Source: Octopus vulgaris
Lineage: Eukaryota
Length of the DNA stretch: 64,000 bases
Reading direction: 5' to 3'
NCBI GenBank assembly: GCA_951406725.2
Contig: OX597823.1
Coordinates: 86,304,001 to 86,368,000, forward strand
Position numbers and translations under genes: made by a program
In this document: positions 36,058-50,465 of the stretch, piece after piece
Position numbering within the stretch: position 1 is the first letter of the stretch
How the letters are laid out: every line of letters starts with the position of its first letter
Notes under the pieces: generated by a model
Seen by the model: only the letters and a program-made list of their open reading frames with translations
What the model was told of the DNA's origin: nothing
Database searches by the model: none

Positions 36058-36582
36058 ATGCATTTGTTAGTAGATTTATTTCGATCTGAGTTGTGATATT
36101 AACCAGATCGTGTAGATTGACACGAAACACAGATTGTCACCACTCGTAGATATTGGAAAGCTTTTACGGTTGTTCTTTAGAATAAACTTTACTTTGTCAA
36201 CAATTTTTGATGATATAAATACTTGAGTAAAATGACAGACAATGTCCAAACGATTTCTACTTGAACAAAAATACCCAACCTTTTTTATGCAAAATAGTAT
36301 ATACCGCGCAAAACAAACTCTCACAGAAAAACGTTGAGCTAGTGAATAGTCCCACGCAACAGGATATAGAATTTTTGTGATAAAAAATTATCCAAGCCAC
36401 CAGAATATTTTAGAATGGTTGTATACTGTCAATCTAACAAGAACGTGACAGTAGGAGGTACACCACCGCTGTATAGCCCTAGGAAGCATCGAACGCCTCC
36501 TGATGGCTTTGACACATTTTTCCCTGTGTCCTTATATACATTTATGAAGGGGAGACAAACACCCCCGGCTGCCGGAACTGCA

Positions 36583-36627
36583 TCTAGGGACACGTGTTTC
36601 AGGATCGTTGTCCTTCATCGGCCTAGA
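36583..36627 (-). ncRNA. Type-I hammerhead ribozyme motif (family F2), minus copy
   Basis: Exact reverse complement of 36872-36916. Confidence 0.75.
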
Positions 36628-36871
36628 GTAGCAGACACCGGTCAGCCGGTGATATTTGCCTCGACTTCGTATTTGTATATATCTATATTCAGTGAAGTCT
36701 ATTCACTGATTATCAAAATAAGAAATATTGAATTTCTAAATCTCTCGTAGAGACATGTACGGTGGTGGGGCGATAGAATGGTTGTATACTGTCAATCTAA
36801 CAATCACTGAATATAGATATATACAAATACGAAGTCGAGGCAAATATCACCGGCTGACCGGTGTCTGCTAC

Positions 36872-36916
36872 TCTAGGCCGATGAAGGACAACGATCCTGA
36901 AACACGTGTCCCTAGA
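36872..36916 (+). ncRNA. Type-I hammerhead ribozyme motif (family F2), plus copy
   Basis: tctagg-CCGATGA-agga-caacga-tcct-GAAAC-ACGT-GTC-cctaga: perfect 6-bp stem I, 4-bp stem II, palindromic stem III, GUC triplet. Helix I extends via ccggctg/cagccgg. Confidence 0.78.
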
Positions 36917-37399
36917 TGCAGTTCCGGCAGCCGGGGGTGTTTGTCTCCCCTTCGTAAATGTATATAAGGACACAGGGAAAAATGTGTCAAAGCCATCAGG
37001 AGGCGTTCGATGCTTCCTATGGCTATACAGCGGTAGTGTACCCCCTACTGTCACGTTCTTGTTAGATTGACAGTATACATCCATTCTATCGCCCACCACC
37101 GTACATGTCTCTACGAGAGATTTAGAAATTCAATATTTCTTACAGAATATTTTAGTATCACTAAATCAAATTTCTCGCATTGTTCAAATTAATAACTTAA
37201 AAGTTGCAATTACAAAAAAAAAAAAAAAAATTCAATACAAACGACAACCCCAAATTTTGAAATGCTTAGTTATTAGAAATTCTTTATTAGAACGCACCCG
37301 AGTATACCGTCAGCAAATCAGGGATCATCATGTCAGACTAATTACACTAAGCAGACATTTGGAAATATGCTACAATAATTTTTTAATGTATATTTTCAT

Positions 37400-40187
37400 C
37401 ACCGACAGGAAAGAAAGGAGTCACGGAGGTGTTGCTATGTACATCCGTGAGGACCTCACACCCCAGGTCCTCTTGTCATACTCAAACTCGGTGTGTGACA
37501 CACTAATTGTACATATTAGGCAACTTGATGTAGTTGTGTGTGCTACATATCGCCCTCCAGATGCCCCAAGCCATGTGGGCAAGTTTGAAGACTGCCTTAT
37601 AAAAATAGAAGAAATTCTAACCACATTAGAACAACACGTAGGTGTGCTTCTTATGGGAGACTTCAATCTGCCCAATGTCAGATGGCCCGAGGGCCTTTCT
37701 CTCCCAGGAATGACAAGATGTGAACGAGGACAGGCGAGGTCCCTCCTGAACCTCATCAACACCCTGTACATGGAGCAGGTAATACTCCAACCAACCAGGG
37801 CAGGTAACACACTGGATCTCTGCTTCACAAATGACATGGATCTCATCCATAATGTGAAAGTGACACCGACACTACTCTCGGATCACAACATGATAGAGCT
37901 GACCATGTACGGGCCAAAAGAGAGCACGGGCATGCAGCCTACAAGAAACCCTCAAAATCCTTCCAGCTTGAACTACCATAAGGCAAACTGGAAACAAATT
38001 GAGAAAGAGATCCTCAAACAAAACTGGCCTAAATGTCTCTCCTCGCCAGACATCGACGTGAAACTTCAACAATTCATGTCTGTAATGCAAGCCATATGCT
38101 ACAAATGTGTCCCAGAGAGAAAGGCCACTGTACACAAGAACAAAATCCCCAGAGAGAGGAAAATTTTAATGAGACGGCGTACGAAATTTTCAAATCGCCT
38201 AAACAAACAGATTGAAAGCAGTGAAAAGTCCCGCCTAAAAATAAAACTGTTGGAAATCGAAAAATGTCTGCAACTCTCCCATGAAAAAGAAAGAGCAGAC
38301 AAAGAAGCCTGGGCTATAGAAAACATAAAATCTAACCCCAGAGCTTTCTACAGGTATGCCAAAGAAACAGCTACAGTGCACTGTAGAATAGGGCCACTCC
38401 TCGAAAAGGATGGCACACTTACAGGAAAACCAATGAGGGTAAGTGAAATACTGAATGAGCAATTCAAGAGTGTTTTCACTCCACCCCTTGGGCATCTCCA
38501 AATCACCAACCCAACTGACTTTTTTACCACTGCAGATATAAAATCAGAGGCGGCGACGATAGATTACATCGATATAAAGGAAGACGATGTAACCAAGGCT
38601 ATAGATGAAATGAAAACAGACTCAGCTACTGGCCCCGATGGATTCCCGGCAATCCTCCTAAAAGCATGTAAGAGAGTCCTAGCAAGACCACTGCAGTTCC
38701 TCTTTCAGAGCTTCCTTGCAGCTGGCAAACTTCCAGGAAAACTGAAGGAAGGTAAAATATGCCTCATTCATAAAGGAGGTAGCAGAGCGGAAGCCAAGAA
38801 CTATAGACCTATCTCTCTGACCTCACACATCAGCAAGGTCATGGAACGAATAGTCAGAAGGAAGCTGATCACCTTCCTTGAAGAGAATGACTTGCTGCCC
38901 GACACCCAACATGGTTTCCGACCAGGGAGAAGCTGTTTAACTCAGCTCCTAGAACACTATGACTGGGTGCTGAAACGGCTGCTCAACCACTCAAATGTGG
39001 AAGTGATCTATCTCGACTTTGCAAAGGCCTTTGATAAAGTCGATCATGGAATGATATGTCACAAACTGCGTGATCTCAACATAGTTGGAAAACTGGGAGA
39101 ATGGCTTCATGACTTTCTGAAGGATAGAAGTCAGGTGGTAGTAGCCAATGTGGCCACCTCCATTAACACACAAATAATGAGCGGTGTTCCGCAGGGCACT
39201 GTTCTGGGACCACTACTGTTCATAATGGCCCTCTCAGACATGCCCTCAGCCACGCAGAGAGCCACGATCACAAGTTATGCAGATGATACAAAAGTTTCAC
39301 AGGCAATACAGAACCCTGAGGACACTAAACACCTGCAATGTGAGCTGGACGAAATATACAAGTGGGCTGAAAAGAATAGCATGCAGTTCAATGCTGGAAA
39401 GTTTCAAGCTTTATACTATCAGCATGCAAAACTGAATGCAATACCCAATGAATACACTGGACCCGGAGGGATTGCAATCCCAGAGGCACAATCAGTGCGT
39501 GACCTGGGTATTCACATGAGTGATGACGCGACCTTTCATGTACATGTTGCTAAACTGACAATGAAATGTAGACGGCTGGCTGGATGGATTCTTAGAACCT
39601 TTAGAACAAGAGAACAAGAAACCATGATGGTCCTCTGGAAGACACTTGTCCTAAGCCACTTTGACTATTGCTCTCAGTTATGGTCACCATCCAGTGTCAA
39701 GTTGATCACAGAACTTGAGGCGATCCAACGAAGCTACACGAAGAAGATAGCCTCTATGCAGAATGTAAGCTACTGGGAAAGACTCAAGAGATTAAAATTA
39801 TATTCCCTGGAGCGTAGGCGGGAAAGATATGCCATAAAATACATCTGGAAGATCCTGGAGGGAAGTGTCCTGAACTTTGGCATCGAGAGTTACGCAAATG
39901 CCAGAACTAGGCGCCACTGCGTGGTGCCTAGGACTCCAAACCTGCCATCAAGATGTAGGACAAGATTCTGTGATAGCCTGGGCTTCCGAGGCCCACAGCT
40001 CTTCAATATCCTCCCGAAGAACCTGAGAGACCTGCATGGGGTGGATACAGATGTCTTTAAAATGAAGCTGGATCTCTTCCTGTCAGGTGTCCCAGATGAA
40101 CCAACTTCACGGCAGGAGGGGCAGATGAGGGCAGCTGCATCGAATTCTCTCATGCACCAAATAGCAGTTGCTAGAAAGCCCCCATGA
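37400..40187 (+). CDS. LINE ORF2 (partial APE endonuclease + reverse transcriptase), CR1/L2-group, 5'-truncated but with no stops or frameshifts
   Basis: APE motifs GGVAMY, YRPP, MGDFNLP, PTRAGNTLDL, SDH. RT motifs GPDG, NYRPISLTS, QHGFRPGRSC, YLDFAKAFDKV, GVPQGTVLGP, YADD, RDLG. Sequence upstream of ~37400 is AT-rich flank, so the listed start at 37257 is fortuitous. Confidence 0.95.
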
Positions 40188-49590: not shown

Positions 49591-50465
49591 ACGAACAGAG
49601 AAAATCCCGTGTGGAATGCTTCAAAAATTTGCGTGTCATCATTTCGCAGGAGCCACGCTAATCTGTATGTCGTTCAAGTTTTACTATATGTAATGCCGCA
49701 ATCTTTACCCTGAGTCCATATAAGTTGAGCTAAAATTACCCCATGCTTGGAAAAAACGCAAGTACTGCTTGGTTGACTCGTACCGCATACTCTGTATAAG
49801 AACGAAAAACATGTTTAAGTGGTTCCATAAGAGACAAATATTTGAAAGTACTTTAAACAAACCACCGCCATCAACAACACCACCACCGCCACTACAAACA
49901 TCACTAGCAACAACAAAAGCGACGACGATACCAATGGCATTGTCACAAAGAACATGATGGTTAATTGTATGATAATCCAGATTTAACTTTAGAGGGGTCT
50001 TCGAAGATCTACGGTGTTTAGTTACCAAGCAACGAGCTTCGTATTATACATAAGTATAATGTTGGAAACGATTAACTTATAGAGATAGTACTTCAAGTGC
50101 ATTGAGTTGATAGCTTTCTTGGTTGTCAATGAGGACAATGGAGATTATTCTAAAACACTTTATATTCTCAGTATTAAAACAAACTAAACAATGAACTAAT
50201 AGTTTACAACTAATAGGTCTTAACTAATGGTTGAGAAACTCAGCGAATCGGCAACAATGTTAATTCTTATATCTATGTTTGTGTGCGTGTGTGTGTATGT
50301 ATAATATACATACATATACATATACACACACGTACACACACATACACACAATACATATATGAGTGTATGTATATATATATATATATATACGTATATATAT
50401 TTATATATATATATATATATGTTTATATGTCTATCTATATATCCATACATATATATATATACATC

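Follow-up and report, generated by a model that had tools for sequence, protein, structure and literature searches.

A non-autonomous hammerhead retrozyme family of Octopus vulgaris, probably inserted in trans by a Penelope-type enzyme

What kind of element leaves two differently opened copies of one non-coding repeat, lying in opposite orientations, within a single target-site duplication (TSD)? The question is raised by a 729-bp insertion in a stretch of 64,000 nucleotides of Octopus vulgaris DNA (contig OX597823.1, positions 86,304,001 to 86,368,000; the window, whose numbering is used below). A preliminary description made from the letters alone had reported a 363-nt unit with a 27-nt recurrence, an inverted copy of about 340 nt and a 13-bp TSD, and all of these were recovered. 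The insert is bracketed by CAGAATATTTTAG at 36401-36413 and 37143-37155, and the chance of this 13-mer at one given place is 7e-8 (6e-5 with 30x30 boundary slack); the last 3 nt also match the unit and thus represent microhomology. Two arms of the 363-nt unit, differing by 5 substitutions and 1 gap, meet 5' end to 5' end with zero overlap. Their junction lies at 36803|36804, and not at the small hairpin around 36688-36709, where the inversion point had been placed. Related copies (see below) end at one of two fixed 3' sites, here called short (tail-less) and long (tailed). The features are as follows, with unit positions (u) counted along the reverse complement of 36414-36776.

36401-36413, plus strand: TSD, left copy, last 3 nt shared with the unit; single copy at the empty site of run X17
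36414-36803, minus strand: left arm, 390 nt or 1.07 units (period 363, with a terminal repeat of 27 nt), running from unit position 337 at its 5' end to the short fixed site at its 3' end
36583-36627, minus strand: type-I hammerhead motif of the left arm, core CCGAUGA, C17 at 36589
36689-36709, plus strand: small hairpin, u68-88, part of the unit and distinct from the inversion point
36803-36804: point where the two 5' ends meet head to head, without overlap
36804-37142, plus strand: right arm, 339 nt, running from unit position 82 at its 5' end to the long fixed site at its 3' end
36818-36823, plus strand: TATA-like box by sequence, u96-101, 25 nt before the Tx1 target; putative promoter
36843-36859, plus strand (also 36640-36656, minus strand): Tx1 site, u121-137, occupied in other family copies and vacant here
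36850-36934, plus strand: extended helix I around the ribozyme
36872-36916, plus strand: type-I hammerhead motif of the right arm, predicted cut after 36910; helix I 36872-77/36911-16, core CCGAUGA 36878-84 (C at position 4 = 36879), stem II 36885-88/36895-98, GAAA 36899-902, palindrome 36902-909
37089-37142, plus strand: tail of about 55 nt between the two fixed 3' ends, only on the outer end of the right arm
37143-37155, plus strand: TSD, right copy

The assembly comprises 2.8 Gb in 227 contigs. The left junction of the insertion is spanned by assembled contigs of runs X15 and X16, and the right junction by one contig of X15. An empty site, for which the preliminary description had proposed to look, was found in run X17, where a contig passes from a single CAGAATATTTTAG copy directly into the right flank; this contig carries another organism label and shows 7 differences in 215 nt. 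No contig of runs X18 and X20 matched the flank. Since the empty site holds one copy of the duplication, and the flank-plus-TSD pattern was found once in the animal's own genome, we consider the TSD to be real. At 13 bp it exceeds the 4 bp taken as a lower limit for retrozymes, and the GC content of the two 1-kb bins containing the element (40-42%) lies below the corresponding 50% limit. Only chance reading frames were found in the 363-nt unit, none with a domain-like motif.

Both arms carry the parts of a hammerhead ribozyme: helix I and stem II, the GAAA stretch, a palindrome (ACACGTGT) and a GUC site. The type-I geometry, palindrome, GUC site and extended helix I that had been described are all there; what had been overlooked is that the core reads CCGAUGA, i.e. 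it carries a U4C change. The Rfam search returned no hammerhead hit at the gathering score or at E<=10. Among exact 20-mers of the genome, 174 have C and 6 have T at core position 4. A looser core pattern gave 813 matches versus 4 in the control, and T occupied position 4 in 14 of the 100 looser-pattern matches listed (manual count). The canonical core is present in the most diverged subfamily, which is 77-82% identical to the window unit. The unit folds much more stably than shuffled sequences do (z=-8.1), and covariation was analysed in 17 hand-picked copies from several subfamilies, in which 91.5% of the cells pair. Both sides are changed in seven pairs, two of them in stem II and one in helix I; 4/500 shuffles reach this number, and kinship among copies inflates such counts. 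In the register used, only 79% of the cells of the outer extended helix are paired. Self-complementarity of loop III is seen both in the oldest and in the youngest subfamilies. Helices I-III and the compensatory changes thus point to a type-I hammerhead fold in each unit, with a core that deviates at position 4.

How active such a ribozyme would be is a separate matter. Leaving tertiary terms aside, adopting the active fold costs the monomer 2.7 kcal/mol by MFE and 4.0 by ensemble energy; the palindrome duplex was estimated at -10.3. These energetics of a palindromic loop fit the dimer-dependent cleavage described for such hammerheads (PMC4209133). The U4C change is reported to lower activity considerably in vitro, yet to leave enough for a viroid in vivo (PMC3088659), so that cleavage may be lacking altogether in young copies. 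Together, U4C and the short helix III would slow cleavage and make it dependent on dimers, leaving templates intact. Searches based on CUGANGA miss a family with U4C throughout.

To place the window copy, we parsed 96 non-redundant loci, a subset of the family (30 best DNA matches, 57 loci picked through the exact-core lists and 9 through the looser pattern). The arms at these loci end in a highly regular way: in 143/160 the 3' end falls at either of two fixed sites, which are separated by about 55 nt, with 72 at the long site (u54-68), 71 at the short site (u361-4) and 17 at other positions, bearing in mind that 30 of the 96 loci were chosen by similarity to the tailed arm, which inflates the long ends and leaves the partner arm unfixed by the choice. 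Both ends are used equally at single-arm loci (22 short, 20 long, 1 other). TA repeats abut 113 of the 143 fixed ends. All adjacent inverted pairs (54/54) are head to head, and the junction overlap is 0-5 nt in 43 of them. When both ends of a pair are fixed (n=39), the pair consists of one long and one short arm in 36 cases, of two short arms in 2 and of two long arms in 1 (p=2e-8). The family is dispersed as monomers and tandems, with arms of up to 2.2 units, and the tandem units are seamless, the tail being joined to the head with no ORF between them.

The two permutations in the window copy thus follow from two fixed reverse transcription start sites, one per arm, combined with random 5' truncation. 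The copy obeys the long-plus-short rule, and its only oddity is its location outside a TA repeat, which is why its TSD is visible; it is an ordinary member of its family. These observations support the assignment of the element to young, ORF-less, TSD-flanked hammerhead retroelements of the retrozyme kind.

The preliminary description had explained the inversion by template switching at the hairpin. This reading, in which the cDNA folds back and primes itself there (self-priming has also been proposed in PMC3846280), is favoured by the right arm of the window copy, which, in unit coordinates, does begin in the 21-nt hairpin, within its second arm, and by the single haplotype common to both arms of an insertion. 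Across the family, however, 5' ends are not enriched in the hairpin (u68-88; 8/143 arms, 8.3 expected; 9/108 junction arms), and the long-plus-short rule is not predicted by fold-back. Moreover, the right arm lacks unit positions 59-81, whereas the left arm lacks 82-363 followed by the tail; since neither arm is a sub-copy of the other, folding back on its own cDNA cannot build the window copy. We therefore regard this origin of the inversion as unlikely.

Two fixed 3' ends with a tail, head-to-head inversion and an AT-rich target, the marks of mobilisation by Penelope-like elements, are all present in this family. For the element PAc, the tail is bounded by the two internal sites at which reverse transcription starts; the enzyme cuts AT-rich DNA on both strands and extends them, and ribozyme cleavage is dispensable (PMC11167929); inverted pLTRs of Penelope lie head to head with the tail on one of them (PMC3846280). 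We propose that the 363-nt family is a non-autonomous retrozyme that was probably inserted by a Penelope-type RT/GIY-YIG protein acting in trans. Such a protein would make the 13-nt staggered cut, and both nicked strands would prime reverse transcription on the same RNA, one from the long site (the tail end), the other from the short site, which lies about 55 nt further upstream. Synthesis of each cDNA would stop at a random point, and the two cDNA ends would be joined head to head with an overlap of 0-5 nt, on a template other than the ribozyme-cut linear monomer. Exceptions to this model are the 17/160 arms that end elsewhere and the 3/39 pairs that break the long-plus-short rule. The model predicts two reverse transcription start sites about 55 nt apart, one per strand, and the 36/39 rule constrains how Penelope integrates.

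The targeting of (TA)n points to a Neptune-type element as the likely helper. At one locus (L009/L037) a truncated RT-GIY-YIG ORF of the Neptune type, with a CX4CxxC linker, lies immediately upstream of a unit; the Neptune/Nematis type with this linker has been associated with microsatellite targeting (PMC8557442). Among the best 30 copies of this Neptune family, which are 93-98% like the query copy, the family has its own terminal repeat, a minimal hammerhead and its own two 3' ends about 36 nt apart, with the same (TA)n flanks. The unit is adjoined by the query copy alone (1/30), and no nucleotide similarity between the Neptune family and the unit was better than E=0.04. The unit is therefore non-autonomous, and this Neptune family is at present a helper candidate only. 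As owner of the repeat it was ruled out by its own terminal repeat and by the 29/30 copies without the unit. The linkage to a GIY-YIG/RT ORF that the preliminary description had proposed to check thus holds at a single locus and fails for the other 29 of the best 30 Neptune copies. In the other loci examined, no terminal repeat resembling the unit was found with the GIY-YIG hits. At L037:2900-4876 we observed a truncated Neptune-type element joined to a retrozyme arm with a 2-nt overlap and TA repeats on both sides, possibly by a template switch between helper and passenger RNA or by insertion into the AT-rich end of the element. Recently active Penelope-like families have been described in Octopus vulgaris, in a main text that does not mention hammerheads or retrozymes (PMC13282606).

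Another reading takes the copies to be 5'-truncated pLTRs of an autonomous Penelope element, in keeping with the shared tail, inversion and (TA)n signature and with the ORF directly upstream of the unit at L009/L037. However, that ORF family has a different minimal hammerhead in a terminal repeat of its own, and 29/30 of its copies lack a unit after them. An autonomous element would carry an RT and GIY-YIG ORF between its pLTRs, but tandems of the unit join tail to head without an ORF, and summed contig depth is far above flank depth across the whole unit. We accordingly give this reading little credence, and the earlier view that the element is not merely a truncated Penelope is borne out by the ORF-less units and their tail-to-head tandems. 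Mobilisation of the RNA by an APE-type LINE through L1-like twin priming is very improbable: a 13-bp TSD with a 5' inversion does resemble twin priming, and this genome has active LINEs, Tx1 types among them, but poly(A) is absent, the second primer in twin priming anneals at variable places, and the fixed internal 3' ends on both arms, the (TA)n targets and the seamless tandems match the Penelope family of the same genome.

Within Penelope-type mobilisation, the form of the RNA template can be narrowed. Only 1/143 arms has its 5' end within 5 nt of the cleavage site (4.3 expected), and 12 arms span two cleavage sites, the longest arm being 809 nt; the missing ends and the two-site arms exclude the cut linear monomer as the usual template. 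Divergence between passes of one arm (155/7091) equals that between arms of one insertion (192/8748), both being 2.2%, below the 3.9% found between loci. Discordance at common variants is 9/7091 between passes and 6/8748 between arms, versus about 1.5% between loci. One unit haplotype per insertion favours a monomeric circle, and we lean slightly towards such a circle copied beyond one round, the alternative being an uncleaved tandem transcript; homogeneous tandem masters or gene conversion would likewise yield one haplotype per insertion. A circular or uncleaved multimeric template, as suggested in the preliminary description, is hence plausible from the arms longer than one unit, the scarcity of ends at the cleavage site and the single haplotype. 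Run X1, putatively RNA, gave only short matching contigs, which carry no weight as to expression.

A second hammerhead repeat family (L286-L305, L076) was also found, with 394 pattern matches against 0 in the control and a tandem spacing of about 351. It has U or C at core position 4 and a few TCGA starts, shows the same two-3'-end pattern with TA flanks, and also hosts Tx1-type elements at the corresponding position.

These passengers are a further property of the first family: in some of its copies a cassette of about 1.75 kb, with an AATAAA end, is flanked by u137 and u121, and 15 exact cassette-to-u121 junctions were counted. The cassette has one ORF, open over 277-459 aa in the 13 copies measured, with a CCHC knuckle; the encoded protein shares 27-35% identity with ORF1 of APE-RT LINEs lying nearby, and YTX2 and fish pol-like proteins are among the homologues of the ORF2 of these LINEs. 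Pfam hits comprised ORF1 with the CCHC knuckle and ORF2 APE-RT with a C-terminal zinc motif, and the sole homologue of one family-associated protein is from Octopus bimaculoides. Judged by the names of the homologues and by this architecture, the passengers probably belong to the Tx1 clade. When 14 ORF1-only cassettes were searched by their own 5' ends, 10 occupied the family site itself, 2 followed another cassette, 1 sat in the second family and 1 was atypical, so that 13/14 were at the site or in arrays there; for the autonomous LINE this held for 9/9 copies, at the site of either retrozyme family or in arrays there. The insertion position is constant, about 25 nt behind the TATA-like box and just upstream of the ribozyme, and the target sequence varies among subfamilies and families. 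Related cassettes occur at four other kinds of target, with TATAWA upstream in 7/7 copies of a third repeat and at 3 single sites (background 56/1698). The strict TATAWA is absent upstream in 4/5 Tx1-bearing copies of the second family and in 3/10 of the first.

In 11/14 composites the 5' duplicate differs from the 3' one (one further composite was unparsed), so that the 5' duplicate was probably brought along by the donor RNA; the retrozyme promoter would then have driven transcription. On these sequence grounds the Tx1 passengers likely borrow that promoter. Distances between cassettes and between host units are uncorrelated (Mantel r=0.16, p=0.14, 13 composites; divergence 8.7% for the cassette and 5.5% for the unit), and most cassettes are thus independent insertions. 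Hitchhiking as the main route of the ORF1-only cassette is unsupported, the Mantel correlation being absent, and may apply to L164 and two close pairs. At L164:6177-7093 a 5'-truncated cassette is joined directly to an inverted retrozyme arm, a junction that suggests that a composite was copied in the Penelope manner. At L281-L284, L169 and L187, ORF1-only Tx1-like cassettes from several families, with open frames, form arrays of up to five or more, stacked at one site 30 nt behind TATAAAG in the third repeat or beside an autonomous Tx1. A hammerhead scan near the third repeat found none, and the same scan missed most known hammerheads. Conceivably, the downstream hammerhead might shape the 3' end of the LINE.

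Retrozymes and their proposed link to Penelope are already known (PMC7229834; bioRxiv 10.64898/2026.07.22.740005; PMC11722881). The family resembles metazoan non-LTR retrozymes, as characterised in the first two of these texts, in its non-coding repeat within 150-450 nt (350-390 bp in mussel, 363 nt here), the type-I hammerhead in each unit, the dispersal as monomers to short tandems, the long TSD and the proposed Penelope helper. Unlike them, its young subfamilies have the U4C core, and no homologous autonomous pLTR was found here. Where those texts use co-occurrence and pLTR homology, the insertion ends here directly evidence Penelope-type priming. With Penelope-like elements (Poseidon PAc and the Neptune clade; PMC11167929, PMC3846280, PMC8557442) the family shares a pair of fixed 3' ends with a tail between them, inverted repeats that lie head to head and of which one bears the tail, targets in AT-rich DNA or microsatellites, and a TATA-like box in the repeat; it differs in the absence of an ORF, in the tail of about 55 nt versus 30-40, and in a hammerhead with long helix I and real helix III versus their minimal form.

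Tx1 families that target other transposons are also known (PMC4494074). Target-specific Tx1 LINEs (Tx1L in Tx1D, Tx1-Mar in Mariner-N4, Keno in U2), as described there, likewise have a CCHC-knuckle ORF1 and an APE-RT ORF2, a fixed site in a multicopy element, tandem pile-ups between target duplications and likely transcription from the flank; in contrast, the target here is a hammerhead retrozyme, the position is constant despite differing target sequence, and ORF1-only protein-coding derivatives use the same site. We found no report of Tx1 elements targeting retrozymes in the literature, and subscription journals, Repbase or supplements may hold one. What is new in the family is the variant core, the strict two-site rule and the Tx1 targeting, the window element itself being of a known kind. 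The family provides a countable genomic signature of Penelope priming, which bears on which enzyme spreads animal retrozymes and on the circle as template, questions raised in PMC7229834 and bioRxiv 10.64898/2026.07.22.740005, and a LINE aimed at the promoter of ribozyme retroelements would constitute a new target class for Tx1. In a tentative scheme that we hold to be less likely than not, Neptune might copy a circular ribozyme RNA, each nicked strand starting at one of two fixed sites; U4C might have replaced the canonical core here, and recur in the second family, through favouring of intact templates; and Tx1 might aim at the retrozyme transcription start behind the TATA box, taking the promoter and, about 70 nt downstream, the hammerhead for a defined 3' end with target-homologous sequence.

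Finally, some minor observations were made nearby and at one other locus. Just to the right of the insertion, a frame open for 1038 aa from stop to stop (window 37071-40187, plus strand), which contains APE and RT domains, represents a near-intact LINE ORF2. At L170:8345-9082, the translation resembles what we take to be large-subunit rDNA. A degenerate U6 snRNA copy (49.3 bits) lies at 49605-49708 of the window, on the minus strand.
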